Source: an uncultured cyanobacterium (GTDB taxonomy: Bacteria; Cyanobacteriota; Cyanobacteriia; Cyanobacteriales; Nostocaceae). From it: 64,000 nt of DNA. Numbering within the stretch: the stretch's first letter is position 1; each line of letters starts with the position of its first letter. Both the position numbers and the translations under genes were made by a program. Shown here piece by piece: positions 6,391 through 57,569 of this stretch. The DNA lies in contig OY970166.1 of NCBI GenBank assembly GCA_963706595.1, forward strand, positions 3,424,001 through 3,488,000, read 5' to 3'. Under the pieces are notes generated by a model. That model was not told the DNA's origin. It did no database searches and saw only the letters and a program-made list of their open reading frames with translations.

Positions 6391-6627
6391 TTATTTTGCT
6401 GCTGCTAACAGGTCTGATAAGGCTTGCACTGACCTATTATCTGCTTGAGGCGACCAGACAGTGGCACTGGTGGAAGCAAGTTGATTTAAGAGTGTATTCT
6501 CTGCGTCACTGGTTTCTAAACTACATCCTTCTTCTTTGGCAACTGCTAACAAGAGAAAGTGGATTAGTCGGAGTTTATCTTGATGTGATAGTTGGTTGAC
6601 TGTGGGTAAAATTTGGCTGAGAGTCAT
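6391..6627 (-). CDS. Small hypothetical protein, antitoxin-like
   Basis: MTLSQILPTVNQLSHQDKLRLIHFL...VWSP pattern resembles small cyanobacterial addiction-module-type proteins. Confidence 0.55.
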   Translation of the reverse strand: MTLSQILPTVNQLSHQDKLRLIHFLLLAVAKEEGCSLETSDAENTLLNQLASTSATVWSPQADNRSVQALSDLLAAAK

Positions 6628-51425: not shown

Positions 51426-51633
51426 AGAACAAGAAAGATCCCCGACTTCTTGTAGAAGTCGGGGATCTGAACCTCGCGCTGTTTACAGTGATGTGTTTTT
51501 TTATTAAGAATTAACGAACCGCAAAGGGCGCAAAGAGCGCTAAGAAAGAAGGAATGAAGAGAAAGAAAAAGGTTGAGTTCTAAATAATAGAATATTTGAA
51601 ATTTACTTGTGAAGCGGGGATATTACCTGCTAA

Positions 51634-54561
51634 TTATCTTAAACCCTGACAGATAAAAGCAGACCAGTAATGAGGAGCAGAAAAAGGAAATTGCTGGGTA
51701 GAGTTTTCGATTTCATTAATTCGTCTGTTAAATTTGGCATACATATTATATTCAGACTCCCATTGCTTATATTCCACGGAACCTGAAATATATTTTTTTC
51801 TATTTCTTATCAGTTCTTTTTCTCTTGGTTCTACTTGCTGAAATATTTGTTTGAGGTCTATTTTTGTAAGTTCGCGTAGCTGAATTTGGGCTTGTCTTAG
51901 TGCTTCAGTACGACTTTGACCTTGTTTTCGGTGCTGGTAGTAGAAAATGGCAAATATTGCTGTCGCTACATCATCTACTTTCCAAAGACTACTGATAACA
52001 CTTCTCGCACCAGCACACAAAAAACCTGTGGAGAGGGTAAGAATATCATCAGTTAAAGAAGGTGTACCTAAATTAGTTTCGCAGCAAGATAGAAACACTT
52101 CTACAAGTTGAGGTAATCGCCAACTTGGTGTCATCAATTGTCCCAAGGTGATGCTGCTACCATGCGCTAATGTTAACTGTGATTCTAAAGGATTATCGAG
52201 GCGAGATTGGGCATGGTGACAGGAATGAAGTCCTTGGACTTGTTGTGCTAACTTGCGATAATTCTTAGAAGTCGCTTGATTACTGCCGATTAATCTATTT
52301 TCTCGTGGAATATTATACATTTTGGCAATTTCTTCACCTTCAAATATGGAGCAGGGAAGGTCATCTTCTGCATCTTCCACGGTTCCATATTGTAGAGACA
52401 TTTGATTAGATGTCTCTATGGTTTTATGTGGTTGACAAAATTCTAAAATTTGGCAGCTTGGAGTGTAGCGAATCAGAAATTTATCTCCTAAATATTCCTG
52501 ATATTCTCCTGTAGGTAAAGCCGCGAAGGGAATCTGATGAAGTAACAGGTGAGGGACTAAAATTAATTCTTCTATTCCTTCAAGATGTTGGGATATAAGT
52601 TCAGCTATTTGCAAGCGTTCAGCTAGTTCGTGGAGAATACTGTGAATATCAGTTTCCCATTTTTGGGGTTCATTCATATAAGGCAATAACCAATTCTGGT
52701 TAATCCAGCCTTGCAATGTTTCTAGCCCTTGTCCTGTGCAAGTGTGGAGACTAATTTGGCTTTGCTGAACGACAAAAATATGGGTGTCGCTGTTGGTGGT
52801 ATAAAAACTGAGGATAGCTGTATTAGGTAGGTCAATTAGCTTCTGAATTTCTGACAAGCTGAGGGGGTTAACTTGAATTTCTCCAGCTAATACGGGATCT
52901 TCGCGTCTGAGATTTTCCCAAACTTGTTGTTTGTCTGTTTCTAAAGATGCGATCGCTTCATTATAAGCGTCCCAAGCAGCCCGTGTGTCACTACGTTTAT
53001 TTTCAGATTTATGGCGTTGGCGTTCTTCGTCAATTTGTCGTTGCAATTCTTCATACTGCTGCAATAACTCTTGGACTTTTGGAGGAATTTCGCCACCTTG
53101 GTAGAGGTCATTACTTGCCATTAAGTCTACCAGACGTTTGGAACGCGATCGCTCTGAATATTCAAAAGCTTTTTCTATTTGTCCAGCGTTGATGCAAGCT
53201 TGCACCATATTTTCGTAAATACCGATGGATTTTTCCAGGATTTCCTGACGACGATATTCAGATTTTGTCCAAGAACGACTAGTTTCTACAGCTTGAATAG
53301 CTAGTCCATATCCTGCGATAGCTTCTGACCATAATTCGGCATGAAAAGTCATATTGCCTAGATTATATGCAGAGTTGAGGGACATAAGTGGAAAAGCAGT
53401 ATGTGTGTATACTTTTAGTGCTGACTTAAACTTTTCTATTGCTTTATCAATTTGTCCTTTATCACGGTAGGCAGCACCTAAATTATTTTGTGTGGTTGCC
53501 CATTCTTCGGGAAAATCTTCTATGGTACGAACTTTCAAAGCTTGTTCATAATAGCGGATAGCTGATTCTATATTTTGTGGCTTATCGCCATCAATCCGAG
53601 TACAGTAAGCATTTCCCAAATTATTTTGAATTTTAGCCCAATATTGTGGAAATAAAGGTCTTGTAAATACTTGCAATGCTAATTCATACATTTTGATAGC
53701 TTCTTCAATATTATGCGCTCTATTAATACCAATTGTTTGGCAGTAGGCATTACCCAGATTTATATTTATTTCAGCCGATTTTTGAGTCAATTTGTGCTGA
53801 TTATATGTTTGTAAAGCATTTTGATAGCAAATAATCGCTGTTTCTAAATTTTCAGATTTATCGCCGTAACTAATTGCAAGATAAGCACTTCCTAAATTAC
53901 TTTGTGTATCTGCCCACCTTTCAGGGAATATTTCCCGTTTATAAACTTGCAAAGCATTTTGATAGCAAATAATCGCTGTTTCTAAATTAGAAAATTGTTC
54001 ACCATGAATTCTATCAAGATAGGCATTTCCTAAATTAATCTGTGTATCTGCCCACATTTCAGGCAATTTTTCATAGTTACGAACTAGCAAGGCATTTTTA
54101 TAACAAAGAATCGCTGTTTCCAAATTTTTATCTCGTTCTTCACGTAGCCTTTTACAGAATGCATTCCCTAAACTGTTTTGGGCAGTAGCCCATTCTTCTT
54201 TATATATTTTTTGGCTGAAAACACTTTCAACTATTTGGTAGCCAATAATAGCAATTTCTAAATTAATAGCTGGAACGCCCAAGGAAAAATCCTGAATAAC
54301 ATTGCTGAAGTTGACAATATCAACTGCAATTGCATATGCATTTTTTTCGTCTACTCTAGATAAGGTATCTAATGTCCAACTTCGCCATACTTGAATTAGC
54401 TGATCATCCAGTTTATTCAGGTTAGTTTGCAGTAATGAAGATATTGCCTGGGAGTTACCGTGGCTGTTGTGAGTTATCTGCAATACTTCAAGCAAAAAAT
54501 CAAGATAATACTTGCGGTTTTTTTTACCCTTTTTTAGTTCAGAGCCGAATCCTTTCGCCAT
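51634..54561 (-). CDS. TPR-repeat CHAT-domain (caspase/separase-like) protease
   Basis: 46-aa TPR units (WA.TQ.NLG.AY); CHAT motifs LHQIPFAAL, HSCHHA, LSCCET, SSLWKVDD, PHYWSAF. Confidence 0.92.
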   Translation of the reverse strand: MAKGFGSELKKGKKNRKYYLDFLLEVLQITHNSHGNSQAISSLLQTNLNKLDDQLIQVWRSWTLDTLSRVDEKNAYAIAVDIVNFSNVIQDFSLGVPAINLEIAIIGYQIVESVFSQKIYKEEWATAQNSLGNAFCKRLREERDKNLETAILCYKNALLVRNYEKLPEMWADTQINLGNAYLDRIHGEQFSNLETAIICYQNALQVYKREIFPERWADTQSNLGSAYLAISYGDKSENLETAIICYQNALQTYNQHKLTQKSAEININLGNAYCQTIGINRAHNIEEAIKMYELALQVFTRPLFPQYWAKIQNNLGNAYCTRIDGDKPQNIESAIRYYEQALKVRTIEDFPEEWATTQNNLGAAYRDKGQIDKAIEKFKSALKVYTHTAFPLMSLNSAYNLGNMTFHAELWSEAIAGYGLAIQAVETSRSWTKSEYRRQEILEKSIGIYENMVQACINAGQIEKAFEYSERSRSKRLVDLMASNDLYQGGEIPPKVQELLQQYEELQRQIDEERQRHKSENKRSDTRAAWDAYNEAIASLETDKQQVWENLRREDPVLAGEIQVNPLSLSEIQKLIDLPNTAILSFYTTNSDTHIFVVQQSQISLHTCTGQGLETLQGWINQNWLLPYMNEPQKWETDIHSILHELAERLQIAELISQHLEGIEELILVPHLLLHQIPFAALPTGEYQEYLGDKFLIRYTPSCQILEFCQPHKTIETSNQMSLQYGTVEDAEDDLPCSIFEGEEIAKMYNIPRENRLIGSNQATSKNYRKLAQQVQGLHSCHHAQSRLDNPLESQLTLAHGSSITLGQLMTPSWRLPQLVEVFLSCCETNLGTPSLTDDILTLSTGFLCAGARSVISSLWKVDDVATAIFAIFYYQHRKQGQSRTEALRQAQIQLRELTKIDLKQIFQQVEPREKELIRNRKKYISGSVEYKQWESEYNMYAKFNRRINEIENSTQQFPFSAPHYWSAFICQGLR

Positions 54562-54576
54562 TTATTTAGGTACTTT

Positions 54577-55308
54577 CTATTTATGATTATCAAAAACTTC
54601 TGCCAACTTCTCCACCAGTTCCTCTGCTAAATCCAATAACTCAATTTCATCAATTTCATCAACTTGATCAATAGTTCCGCGATTCCTTTCTCCAACTGCC
54701 ACATTACCAACTAAGATATTTTTTACATAAAAAATCCGGTCTTCTTCCTCCGAAAGACTCAGACATTTTTCCAACTCTACAGCAACTTCCTGGGTTGTCC
54801 TTGCACCTAAACGCGCTCTCACTTTCACCGCTACTAAATCGTCACTTTCCAGGAATTTTACCAAAGCTATTCTCAGTCCATCATCCTGCTTAGAAAACTT
54901 CTCAATTGCTGCACAAACATATTCCCGCACACTCATGTTTGCCGCCAATGCCTTTTGTCCAACTACATCTGGGACATCTACCAGTAATACACCTTCATTA
55001 TCGCTGGCTTGATATAATTCATCCTCTTTTTTCACAGCTACCAGCAAATCAGCACCCAACGCGTGTAAATAGTGCAACACTGATTCCAACTCATGTTCCT
55101 TTAACGCCGACTCCAATTTAGACACCGCCGCTTGCTGCACTCCTAGTTTTTCCGCTAGCTGCGCCTGAGTCAATCCTGCCTTATTACGTATTTCCCGCAT
55201 CGCATCTGTTAGATATAGACGCAGGTACTCTAACTTACCCGCCAAAATCACTTCTGGATCTTCGCTGACCTGTTGCTGTAACCAAGCTTGAAAATTAGGC
55301 TTTTTCAT
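54577..55308 (-). CDS. XRE/HigA-like HTH antitoxin with long C-terminal extension
   Basis: REIRNKAGLTQAQLAEKLGVQQAAVSKLES; start overlaps the toxin stop (TGATG). Confidence 0.85.
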   Translation of the reverse strand: MKKPNFQAWLQQQVSEDPEVILAGKLEYLRLYLTDAMREIRNKAGLTQAQLAEKLGVQQAAVSKLESALKEHELESVLHYLHALGADLLVAVKKEDELYQASDNEGVLLVDVPDVVGQKALAANMSVREYVCAAIEKFSKQDDGLRIALVKFLESDDLVAVKVRARLGARTTQEVAVELEKCLSLSEEEDRIFYVKNILVGNVAVGERNRGTIDQVDEIDEIELLDLAEELVEKLAEVFDNHK

Positions 55309-55712
55309 CACTGTTCCCTCTGCTGCAATTCACGCAATCTTACTCTTGCAGGTTCTTTGTCTCTATCTTTGATAGCGCCGTCGTATTTTTTCATAAAGGC
55401 GTGCAACACAATAAACTTCTGAGGAGTAGCAGCCGTTAAGATAAACCGGGGATTATGTTCACTCTTAGTCATACGTAACTCATACAGGTCATCTTCCAGC
55501 TTCTCAAAGATTCCACTGGTCAGTGATAACAGTCCTTTGTTGCACAGGTAGCCGAGATTAACTTGCAGACGCTTAGTTTCGGAAGCACTCAGTAATGGCT
55601 TTGGTGGATTCTCTGGTTGTTCCTCTGGCGGAATCATGCGAATGAAAAAAGCAAGTAAATCTTTGGGGATTTCCCCATCGATATCTTGATAAAGTTCCCA
55701 ATTCCAACTCAC
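55308..55712 (-). CDS. RelE/HigB-like (Gp49/DUF891) type II toxin
   Basis: KLEDDLYELR, PRFI, IVLHAFMKK; precedes an HTH gene. Confidence 0.85.
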   Translation of the reverse strand: MSWNWELYQDIDGEIPKDLLAFFIRMIPPEEQPENPPKPLLSASETKRLQVNLGYLCNKGLLSLTSGIFEKLEDDLYELRMTKSEHNPRFILTAATPQKFIVLHAFMKKYDGAIKDRDKEPARVRLRELQQREQ

Positions 55713-55724
55713 TTCCTACCTCAC

Positions 55725-55776
55725 AATATATTATTCCTTAGCAGGAATGTCAATATGTTTATTCTTTACAAGGAAT
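55725..55776 (-). promoter_or_regulatory. Sigma70 promoter with two palindromic operators for the toxin-antitoxin-CHAT operon
   Basis: TTGACA(55753-55748)-17 bp-TATATT(55730-55725); ATTCCT-N4-AGGAAT at 55733-55748 and ATTCTT-N4-AGGAAT at 55761-55776. Confidence 0.8.
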
Positions 55777-55825
55777 ATCATATAAAATAAGTGAGTGCAA
55801 CTAAGCTAATCAAAGATTTAGCCAT

Positions 55826-55860
55826 AAAAATGGCGCGTTAGGCAAAACCAAAACGCACCA
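55826..55860 (-). terminator. lysS terminator
   Basis: TGGTGCGTT...AACGCGCCA hairpin followed by TTTTT on the minus strand. Confidence 0.55.
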
Positions 55861-55883
55861 TGTTAGTTGTATATTTAAGTACC

Positions 55884-57569
55884 TTAACTCAATTGTTCAT
55901 GCTTAAATTTCCCTTTAATGGATTTGTTAAAGTATTGACCTTTAGACGGTGCATTGTCTAAGTCTTCCTTGACGCTAGGAGGTACTTTGAAATACTCGTA
56001 AACACTGCCACTATCAAATTCAATAGTCAGTGTTTGAGTTTGGGGATTATAGCTAAATTGCCTAATCACGCTGCCTTCTGGCTTGAGTAACGGAAAGGCG
56101 ATCGCATCCCGAATACTGGCACAATCAGTTAATAGCATCACTAACCGATCAATCCCAATCCCCAAACCACCTGTAGGCGGCATTCCGTATTCCAAAGCTG
56201 TGATAAAGTCCTCATCGACACCTTGGGCTTCTAAATCACCAGCAGCTTTCAGCGCCGCTTGGGCTTCTAAACGTTCTCTTTGATCTACTGGGTCTGTTAA
56301 CTCAGAGAAACTGTTAGCAGTCTCACGCCCCACGATAAATAATTCAAATCGTTCTACCAAACCCGGCTGAGAACGATGAGGTTTAGCTAAAGGTGAAATT
56401 TCTACAGGATAATCTGTGACAAAAGTCGGCTGAATTAAGTTTTCTTCTATCTTTTGTTCAAAAGCTGCATTCAAAAGTTTGCCAATTGTGGGGATATCTT
56501 CTATACCATGAAGCCCCGCATTTTTACTCGCCGCTTTCGCCTCTTCCAATGTCGAGAAAGAATTGAAATCCAAGCCTGTATATTCTTTAACTAAATCGTG
56601 CATCGTCACCCGTCGCCAAGGTGCTGATAAATCTATCGGTCTGCCTTGGTAGGTAATTTGTAGTGTGCCGAGTACCTCTTGGGCAACAGTGGTAATAATT
56701 CCCTCTGTCAGCGCCATCATATCGTTGTAATCAACGTAGGCTTGGTAAACCTCAATTGAGGTAAATTCGGGATTGTGGCGAGTTGATACGCCCTCATTCC
56801 GAAAAATTCGCCCTAATTCAAACACCTTTTCAAAACCACCGACAATCAACCGTTTTAAATGCAGTTCTGTAGCAATTCGTAGATACAACTGCATCTCTAA
56901 GGTGTTGTGGTAAGTCACAAACGGACGCGCATCAGCACCGCCAGCTTCACTTTGCAAAACAGGCGTTTCAATTTCCAGAAAATCCCGTTCTGTCAAATAG
57001 CGGCGAATCCCCGCAGTAATTTGGGCGCGACGGCGGAAGGTTTGCCGCACTTCGGGATTAACAATTAAATCAACATAGCGCTGACGGTAGCGTTTCGCCA
57101 CATCCGTTAAACCATGCCACTTGTCGGGTAGAGGCAACAGGGATTTTGTCAGGATGCTGTATTCTTTGACGTAAACAGATAATTCGCCCTTTTCAGTCCG
57201 TTTAATAGTGCCTTTGACTCCCAGAATATCACCTGCATCTGTAAGTTGTTTGAGGTGAGCGAAGGCATCAGCATCAGCCTCTCCCATGCATTCTTGGATA
57301 CGGCTTTTCTCTAAATAAAGTTGAATAGTGCCAGTTTCATCTTGCAGCGTGAAGAAAGCCAGTTTACCGAAAACACGACGCGCCATAATGCGCCCAGCAA
57401 CGGCAACATCTAGATCAACTTCTTCACCACTGGGTAAATCAGCAAATTTTGCTTGCAATTCGGCTGTGTGATGAGTAGACTCCCAACGATAGGCGTAAGG
57501 ATTAGATCCTAGCTGCTTGAGTTGGTTGACTTTTTCCAGCCTAGCGGCACGGATATCTTCTTCCGACAT
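55884..57569 (-). CDS. lysS: Class II lysine-tRNA ligase with C-terminal KTSC domain
   Basis: [35 protein letters not shown]; tail [21 protein letters not shown]...SKGQYFN. Confidence 0.97.

Follow-up and report, generated by a model that had tools for sequence, protein, structure and literature searches.

Within a 64,000-nucleotide stretch of DNA from an uncultured, filamentous cyanobacterium of the Nostocaceae (the window; GenBank assembly GCA_963706595.1, contig OY970166.1, positions 3,424,001 to 3,488,000), three co-oriented open reading frames (ORFs) on the minus strand encode a HigB-like toxin, an antitoxin with a C-terminal extension and a TPR-CHAT protease. Comparative sequence analysis gives good support to the view that these genes form a real, conserved module in which protease and antitoxin are linked. 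The extension of the antitoxin is a domain, ATc, that appears to serve as a portable tag and of which no description was found in the literature searched. Probably, though by no means certainly, the TPR-CHAT protease cuts ATc after Arg211 (R211), destabilises the antitoxin and frees HigB, which would make the cassette a protease-triggered toxin–antitoxin (TA) system. How TA modules are switched on is a long-standing question. The known routes include general proteases, competition for chaperones and direct binding by phage proteins; the literature searched contained no case of an antitoxin controlled by its own caspase-like protease.

Conservation of the cassette

A scan of species-representative genomes yielded 62 loci, mostly from Nostoc and mostly beside lysS, 58 of which have a near-full antitoxin match. 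The toxin ORF is full length in 56 of these 58. Downstream, 37 loci have an intact TPR-CHAT gene, 8 have one that is broken or deviant in its motifs and 7 have none; in the other 6 a contig end intervenes. An even sample of the order (401 genomes) contained 22 genomes with a toxin match, 21 of them near full length, spread over nine families. Nineteen of these 21 toxin orthologues are accompanied by a full tagged antitoxin, one antitoxin being cut by a contig end and another truncated, and 17 have a TPR-CHAT ORF of at least 900 amino acids (aa) in the cassette, one of which is interrupted by a stop codon. The other four comprise one case each of CHAT fragments, a CHAT gene across a contig break, a contig end and no CHAT within 1.5 kb. 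The triple occurs in nine families, also away from lysS, which rules out a linkage unique to the source genome, one of the findings that the initial annotation, a model's reading of the sequence alone, had named as refuting its proposal. The association was also examined from the side of the protease: among the 40 best new CHAT orthologues, an ATc gene lies upstream and co-oriented in 25, is divergent in 1, absent in 8 and unscorable in 6, while the next 20, more distant, orthologues have a co-oriented upstream ATc gene in 4.

Some cassettes contain further genes. In three of them (L248:3732-4286, L262:4479-5030, L270:3892-4491) a HEIGH (HExxH-like) protein of 183–199 aa, whose L248 copy has no Pfam match, is encoded between the TA pair and TPR-CHAT. 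DUF433 and MazF/PemK genes are inserted within others (L242:6147-6873, L270:4563-4955, L278:2486-2833), as called by Pfam for L242 and by sequence likeness for L270 and L278.

ATc as a portable domain

The antitoxin consists of an N-terminal helix, an XRE helix-turn-helix (HTH) domain similar to those of HigA and HipB, a middle region and the ATc domain (PF01381; AlphaFold2 (AF2) model). Its best Foldseek row is HigA2 (E 6.6e-3), HipB-like rows also appear and none reaches E <0.001; the nearest named match is a Nodularia record (94%). In the AF2 model (whole-model pTM 0.40), ATc is predicted to form a helical bundle with pLDDT 80–90, interrupted by a low-confidence loop at residues 204–217. 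No Pfam, NCBIfam or PADLOC family covers ATc, comparison with PDB sequences gave nothing better than E 0.06, and the Atlas returned no usable match. One row of the whole-antitoxin fold search, 9mn4_E (Z 6.7, 7% identity), spans ATc at the background level for helical bundles; the fold of ATc was barely probed, because these searches used the whole antitoxin model and their rows were filled by the HTH part. No relatives of the antitoxin were found in viral contigs and no ATc matches in plasmids.

An ATc profile matched 95 places in 64 of 401 genomes of the phylum, all within the order among the matches listed, and 130 representatives of a large protein library. ATc forms the end of five kinds of protein: the HTH antitoxin, a second HigA family encoded behind a RelE toxin, the partner of a nuclease-like protein, the partner of a protein of 127–139 aa, and DUF1822 proteins. 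A CHAT or TPR-CHAT N-terminal match within 3 kb downstream was scored at 93 of the 95 places, the two in the source genome being excluded. It was present for 20 of 20 scorable DUF1822-ATc proteins, which are encoded behind sigma-like genes, for 5 of 5 HTH-ATc antitoxins, for the single ATc partner of the 127–139-aa protein (1/1), and for 8 of 56 scorable acidic ATc partners of a 231-aa protein; the remaining places include two fragments and three without a usable ORF. The 231-aa protein has no Pfam match and scores 0.89–0.90 to restriction endonuclease (REase) clusters in the Atlas. Pfam likewise gives no match for the 127–139-aa protein, for which 'BECR-like' is a by-eye label only. Among untagged copies of the second HigA family, 1 of 10 lies near CHAT, by way of a neighbouring tagged pair, which makes for a weak control.

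Several tagged pairs may be stacked before a single CHAT gene: a toxin pair and a nuclease pair in L037 and others, a toxin pair and a small-protein pair in L085, L250, L251 and L273, and a nuclease pair and a RelE pair in L242. With the same tag on every partner gene, a single protease could act on several such pairs. The initial annotation, which had described an extended antitoxin, did not recognise this wider use of the extension as a module of different cargo pairs. It is an evenly balanced proposition that ATc is a plug-in 'cut here' domain of filamentous cyanobacteria, attached to unrelated antitoxins and anti-sigma-like proteins, through which one allele-swapping TPR-CHAT receptor fires stacked outputs at once (mRNase, DNase, sigma factor), with sensor, tag and cargo recombining freely in a modular immune pathway of the caspase style.

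Other arrangements of the domain were also observed. Among 40 of the 130 library representatives that were scanned, ATc is also found on TRADD-N and TPR proteins. A DUF4114-subtilase insert splits the domain in P0074, P0004 carries a tandem double copy, and P0049 and P0054 are TRADD-N fusions. ATc is in frame with a whole TPR-CHAT in L076 (6438-9440) and with TPR repeats in L269 (3671-4795), which may be deletions or assembly errors. A 240-aa HTH protein in L308, suspected of carrying a diverged ATc tail, was rejected (hhalign probability 0.4%), and the label 'DUF1822 = PatU3 family', which no analysis supported, was dropped.

The loop arginine

R211 lies in the low-confidence loop and is kept in 46 of 46 HTH-ATc rows. 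The loop drifts on either side of it (ratio of nonsynonymous to synonymous substitutions, dN/dS, 0.84 and 0.64 in 32 close sequences), and in the same sequences the ATc helices are constrained (0.18 and 0.07). Among 179 distinct ATc proteins, an arginine occupies this column in 96 of 101 CHAT-linked copies (four main classes) versus 9 of 54 CHAT-less nuclease partners. In a quick tree of 75 nuclease-like proteins, a clade of 39 rows (SH-aLRT 99) has no CHAT neighbour in 37 cases, the other two being unscorable, and the loop is deleted in 37 of the partners. A few more CHAT-less rows outside this clade have lost the arginine independently, as has one CHAT-linked row.

The source genome itself contains a loop-less orphan pair (L096, G000:C1:4781738-4782966), whose nearest CHAT gene is 368 kb away. 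In this pair, a gene of the restriction-nuclease-like kind stands beside that of an ATc partner (G000:4782520-4782966) whose loop is deleted. ATc matches occur in 43 of 45 genomes of the family, where orphan pairs of the L096 type are widespread and perhaps domesticated.

In two loci, L075 and L326, the toxin is intact and the antitoxin core is retained, ATc has been lost and no CHAT neighbour was seen; in L326 the tag of a second partner has been lost as well. This pattern suggests that neutralisation does not require ATc and that the domain is retained because of the protease.

The protease and its variable region

The 975-aa protein combines TPR repeats with a CHAT domain (PF12770, E 9.6e-42; AF2 pLDDT 84). 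Its closest solved fold is the TPR-CHAT protein Csx29 (Foldseek 8eey_B, E 2e-14), and its score of 65.6 bits against NF041237 (Csx29), where the cut-off is 300, places it outside that family. The motifs HSCHHA and LSCCET, which the initial annotation had judged to hold an apparently intact catalytic dyad, do so: in Craspase TPR-CHAT chains, the counterpart of H783 is the His of 'CHG' and that of C827 the Cys of 'ACET', and among 60 aligned homologues H783 is conserved in 59 and C827 in 58.

The N-terminal part of the protease is hypervariable. For residues 17–125, median identity across 30 close loci is 0.30, in a comparison whose sequence pairs are not independent; the CHAT core reaches 0.86, the antitoxin core 0.94 and ATc 0.81. 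Residues 17–125 fall into 15 groups (33 sequences), and their divergence does not track that of the antitoxin (rho -0.14). The source allele is 85% identical to that of the Nostoc locus L033 and at most 45% identical to the other scorable rows listed.

Co-folding of CHAT with the antitoxin, which had been suggested with the initial annotation, gave 0.52 for CHAT residues 345–975 with ATc residues 146–244, against 0.00 for the best control, with contact agreement of at least 95% between runs and partner pLDDT of at least 76. Among solved complexes, 116 of 157 reach the mark that was applied, as do 2 of 215 mismatches; at scores of 0.60 or less, only 18 of the 157 and both of the mismatches do so. 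The models thus lend weak support to a pairing of CHAT and ATc.

A second TPR-CHAT protein in the source genome (G000:C1:2359708-2364591) has 1004 aa and a related N-terminal domain. Its gene is followed by genes for proteins of 114 and 473 aa that lack ATc, and it probably belongs to a different three-gene system.

The toxin

The 134-aa protein belongs to the Gp49 family (PF05973, E 4.7e-9, above the cut-off). A single-sequence search found no relative; a profile of 23 relatives matches HigB 6AF3 (2e-14) and HigB1 7NBU/7AWK (about 0.003). The catalytic residues proposed for HigB of the toxin–antitoxin–chaperone (TAC) system are E66, R68, R77, F93 and K95, according to the consulted portion of that report (PMC9098466). 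Their counterparts here, E78, R80, R89, F106 and K108, are invariant or nearly so among relatives. Gp49 toxins are described as ribosome-dependent mRNases in the portion consulted of a further study (10.1101/2025.01.28.635273), and the toxin is predicted to be an enzyme of this kind.

Operon layout and regulatory elements

The features of the region are collected in Table 1. The layout described by the initial annotation was recovered in the sequence: three co-oriented genes behind the promoter, an overlap of toxin and antitoxin genes by TGATG (the junction reads CAGTGATG) and a 15-bp gap between the antitoxin gene and that of the protease. The toxin gene precedes and overlaps the gene of an XRE-HTH antitoxin, which is the order of HigBA-type modules.

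Table 1. Features of the cassette and its surroundings, in window coordinates
Feature	Position	Strand	Remarks
Toxin ORF	55308-55712	-	134 aa, GTG start
Extended antitoxin ORF	54577-55311	-	244 aa (GTG start) or 243 aa (ATG within TGATG)
ATc domain	54580..54867	-	Antitoxin residues 149-244, about 90 aa; portable helical module (predicted)
Arg211 codon	54679..54681	-	Predicted P1 residue (N-R↓G), from conservation
TPR-CHAT protease ORF	51634-54561	-	975 aa
Hypervariable N-terminal helical domain and TPR array	53269..54513	-	About residues 17-431; likely sensor
Stretch with catalytic dyad codons	52081..52215	-	His783 52213-52215; Cys827 52081-52083
Sigma-70-type promoter TTGACA-17-TATATT	55725..55753	-	From promoter scan; layout kept in toxin orthologues
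Perfect palindrome ATTCCT-N4-AGGAAT	55733..55748		In promoter spacer; likely autorepression operator
Upstream operator-like palindrome ATTCYT-N4-ARGAAT	55761..55776		Kept 5' of most toxin orthologues; likely a HigA site (putative)
Terminator-like hairpin 3' of lysS	55822..55862	-	Stem of 10 bp, loop of 12 nt, then a T run
Strong hairpin with T tail	51436..51468	-	15 pairs; 166 bp 3' of CHAT gene, between convergent genes; likely terminator
lysS	55884-57569	-	LysS-KTSC fusion (PF00152 + PF13619)

TTGACA-17-TATATT ranks best among 26 promoter-like sites, and shuffled sequence yields 19.3 +/- 4.5 sites, so the scan by itself proves little. The same -35 and spacer layout is found again 5' of nearly all toxin orthologues, together with one or two ATTCCT-N4-AGGAAT palindromes, elements that the initial annotation had missed. 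At the sequence level there is thus a putative palindromic operator over the promoter, as in type II HigBA modules, and the exact pattern of the spacer palindrome is present at two places in the genome (5.57 Mb). A weak promoter-like site just 5' of the CHAT gene (54614-54586, 9/12) is at chance level and was rejected.

The cassette is flanked by lysS and a molybdopterin oxidoreductase gene, and the spot immediately after lysS is a variable cassette site in many Nostocales. The terminator-like hairpin that had been reported between lysS and the operon is present and followed by a T run; its stability (-17.1 kcal/mol, z -1.95 versus shuffles) gives modest support to a plausible terminator, which the terminator scan did not list because its loop exceeds 8 nt. 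The hairpin 3' of the CHAT gene, ATCCCCGAC...TCGGGGAT, resembles one in L075 (about 6475-6505), which sits directly after the truncated antitoxin and possibly marks the end of a deletion.

Proposed mechanism and alternatives

The following sequence of events is proposed. The three genes lie in one orientation behind the conserved promoter with its twin palindromes. By family resemblance, the N-terminal part of the antitoxin would bind the toxin and repress the promoter. ATc would dock on a conserved region of CHAT and present the arginine loop, as the conservation patterns and, weakly, co-folding suggest. By analogy with Csx30 and CalpT, a cut would free the last helix, the bundle would unfold and host proteases would clear the remainder. 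The swapped N-terminal and TPR region may sense a trigger, most likely a phage protein, and the outcome would be arrest or death of the cell and protection of the filament. This last step is the least sure, and the phage trigger is the weakest element of the model.

Several observations weigh against this scheme. Nostoc is heavily represented among the sampled loci, which are not independent. Of the 59 nuclease-partner copies in the phylum sample, 48 lack a CHAT neighbour, and tagged copies of the second HigA family adjoin CHAT in only 1 of 3 cases. The contrast in the arginine column reflects mostly one inherited event and a handful of others, because loop loss is concentrated in one clade. 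CHAT-less HTH antitoxins retain the whole tag and the arginine (6/6), so that loss of the tag does not always follow loss of CHAT; these six may be recent CHAT losses, or a CHAT protein encoded elsewhere may serve them. Intact toxins occur next to antitoxins that have no tail, so that cutting by itself would not necessarily free the toxin and the degradation step is probably needed. Positive selection was not shown in the TPR region, where pooled dN/dS is 0.28–0.49 and dS is saturated, a combination that points to allele exchange instead; misaligned repeats may inflate the divergence of this region. PADLOC-DB 2.0.0 names no matching system, giving only weak generic HTH, TPR and NsnC matches, in keeping with the earlier remark that the operon is not a recognised named system. 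Of the proposal in the initial annotation that the protease cuts the antitoxin and so releases the toxin, the first part has gained comparative support from the gene order in nine families, the tail common to CHAT-adjacent proteins and the arginine that tracks CHAT; the second would probably require a further step, since a simple cut need not free the toxin.

ATc could instead be a securin-like inhibitor or a docking adaptor of the protease, which would itself be the main effector acting on host or phage proteins, with the toxin as a parallel output. Such an arrangement would fit the way in which ATc follows CHAT genes whatever the cargo and the in-frame joins of L076 and L269; co-folding cannot distinguish a substrate from an inhibitor, and an effector-less caspase-like protease conferred phage resistance, according to the consulted portion of PMC12642450. 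However, a strictly kept arginine in a drifting, disordered loop suits a true P1 residue better than a pseudo-substrate, 8 of the 40 close CHAT orthologues have no upstream ATc gene, and an inhibitor fused to five kinds of cargo partner lacks a clear purpose unless those partners are the targets. An inhibitor or adaptor role is therefore considered improbable.

Cleavage of ATc might also proceed as proposed in response to an endogenous stress or developmental cue, in the manner of HetF and PatU3, with growth arrest as its output rather than abortive infection against phages. HetF, the sole cyanobacterial CHAT protein with a known substrate in the literature searched, has its role in cell division and in the differentiation of heterocysts. 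Sigma-like factors are the partners of the largest ATc class that is linked to CHAT, and the absence of a PADLOC match is also consistent with such a role. The sensor alleles are, however, swapped among close relatives, CHAT is broken or lost in 15 of 52 scorable loci, the spread is patchy (22 of 401 genomes) and the cargo is a nuclease or toxin. Allele swapping, frequent breakage or loss, patchy spread and such cargo are typical of conflict systems and not of core developmental genes, and an endogenous trigger, too, appears rather improbable.

The site behind lysS might, alternatively, be a mere hotspot at which cassettes recombine through shared ATc DNA, an ordinary HigBA module beside an unrelated protease having acquired its tail by accident. 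Cassettes are indeed chimeric or partly deleted in L045, L053, L076 and L081, some contain ordinary untagged TA pairs (DUF433, MazF), and TA pairs persist without CHAT. Accidental acquisition is nevertheless quite unlikely, given a triple found in nine families and also away from lysS, the purifying selection on the ATc helices, the invariance of R211 and the tagged antitoxin beside 19 of 21 toxin orthologues. Chaperone addiction of the TAC type, in which the tail would destabilise the antitoxin unless held by TPR-CHAT and a phage protein would compete for binding, recalls HigBAC in toxin family and layout and is very improbable, as an intact toxin and a full-length tagged antitoxin persist without adjacent CHAT in L049, L056, L065 and L072, the model predicts that ATc folds into a helical bundle and the catalytic dyad is conserved.

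If protease-triggered release of the toxin holds, the system offers a candidate substrate and cut site for the abundant, unstudied class of cyanobacterial TPR-CHAT proteins, and the branch with DUF1822 and sigma-like genes would gain a concrete mechanism. A portable tag would provide a compact switch that could be transferred into circuits under protease control, and the 15 groups of sensor would form a ready panel for finding cyanophage triggers.

Comparison with known systems

No system that joins a TA pair to CHAT was found in the literature search, although supplements with neighbourhood tables, which lay outside the search, could list such cassettes. In the accessible text of a survey of protease-effector modules (PMC12642450) neither 'antitoxin' nor 'CHAT' occurs, and the same holds for 'CHAT' in that of PMC7159879 and for 'antitoxin' in that of 10.1101/2023.06.23.546230. 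DdvA (PMC11506125) came up among the fold matches.

Two systems of cyanobacteria offer partial parallels. HetF cuts PatU3 after Arg117 in TNYR↓SPET, as given in the consulted portion of PMC9457339. In this case, too, a CHAT protease of cyanobacteria cleaves an inhibitory protein behind an arginine, and some ATc loops, for example SNR↓G and SYR↓D, are similar to the site TNYR↓S. HetF differs in its N-terminal CHAT domain, membrane segment, periplasmic TPRs and developmental role (PMC9457339). The PatU3 site motif was not found among the ORFs of the source genome, and no PatU3 sequence was compared with ATc. In the EACC2-caspase systems, ECF sigma, DUF1822 and caspase-fold genes occur together in cyanobacteria, as far as the consulted portion of PMC8195603 describes them, and one ATc class consists of exactly sigma-like, DUF1822 and TPR-CHAT genes. 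However, the EACC2 proteins have an N-terminal EACC2 (alpha+beta)-caspase and variable C-termini and are proposed to undergo autoproteolysis (PMC8195603), whereas the protease described here has an all-helical variable N-terminus and a constant C-terminal CHAT domain, a comparison of layout made without an EACC2 profile. Section 9 of PMC8195603 mentions neither a shared cleavage domain nor TA cargo.

The CalpL-CalpT-CalpS system also has a sensor protease that cuts an inhibitor, with ClpXP thought to finish the release, but the protease is of the Lon type, is activated by cyclic oligoadenylate and has a sigma factor as cargo (consulted portion of 10.1101/2024.05.08.593092). The proposed protease step is closest to that of Craspase (Csx29, Csx30, CASP-sigma). 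There, the C-terminal domain of Csx30 contains a small flexible loop at which Csx29 cuts, the N-terminal domain of Csx30 is the inhibitor, and the authors suggested that the fragments are degraded afterwards (PMC10028731, as far as consulted). The cassette shares a TPR-CHAT protease of the same fold with a His/Cys dyad and, by analogy, would share an inhibitor that inhibits through its N-terminal part and is cut in a flexible loop of its C-terminal domain, release probably depending on further degradation. It differs in that the cassettes examined lack Cas7-11 and CRISPR genes (the rest of the source genome was not searched for Cas7-11), in that Csx30 and Csx31 are likewise not linked to it, in that its cargo is a HigB toxin rather than a sigma factor, and in that ATc has no PDB sequence match.

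In layout, the cassette is closer to HigBAC and the TAC system of M. tuberculosis, which likewise combine a Gp49/HigB toxin and an HTH antitoxin extended at its C-terminus with the product of a third gene (10.1101/2024.02.24.581848; PMC9098466, both as far as consulted); the third gene of HigBAC senses a phage protein (10.1101/2024.02.24.581848). In TAC this gene encodes SecB, whereas here it encodes a caspase-like protease with no SecB family match. The extension here is a domain that is predicted to fold and has a conserved arginine loop, and the antitoxin may be independent of the third gene, since intact TA pairs persist without adjacent CHAT (CHAT elsewhere was not searched). The predicted TA-ParA-TPR systems, for which apoptosis-like immunity has been proposed, also combine a type II TA pair (Gp49-HTH, REase toxins) with a third component and a variable TPR sensor (consulted portion of 10.64898/2026.10.19.760177). 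Their switch is a ParA NTPase, whereas the 975-aa protein has no ParA or NTPase family match; 'CHAT' does not occur in the main text of that report as accessible. Arrangements that fit these predicted systems were seen in L093 (6735-9365) and L094 (6011-8332), where a related Gp49 toxin and an HTH antitoxin without ATc overlap a ParA/MinD-type NTPase gene. The end of the L093 antitoxin, ...WGIAA, presumably resembles a ClpXP degron. Taken together, the cassette resembles Craspase in its proposed protease step and TAC and TA-ParA-TPR in its layout, and it stands apart from each of them in the features by which they are defined.

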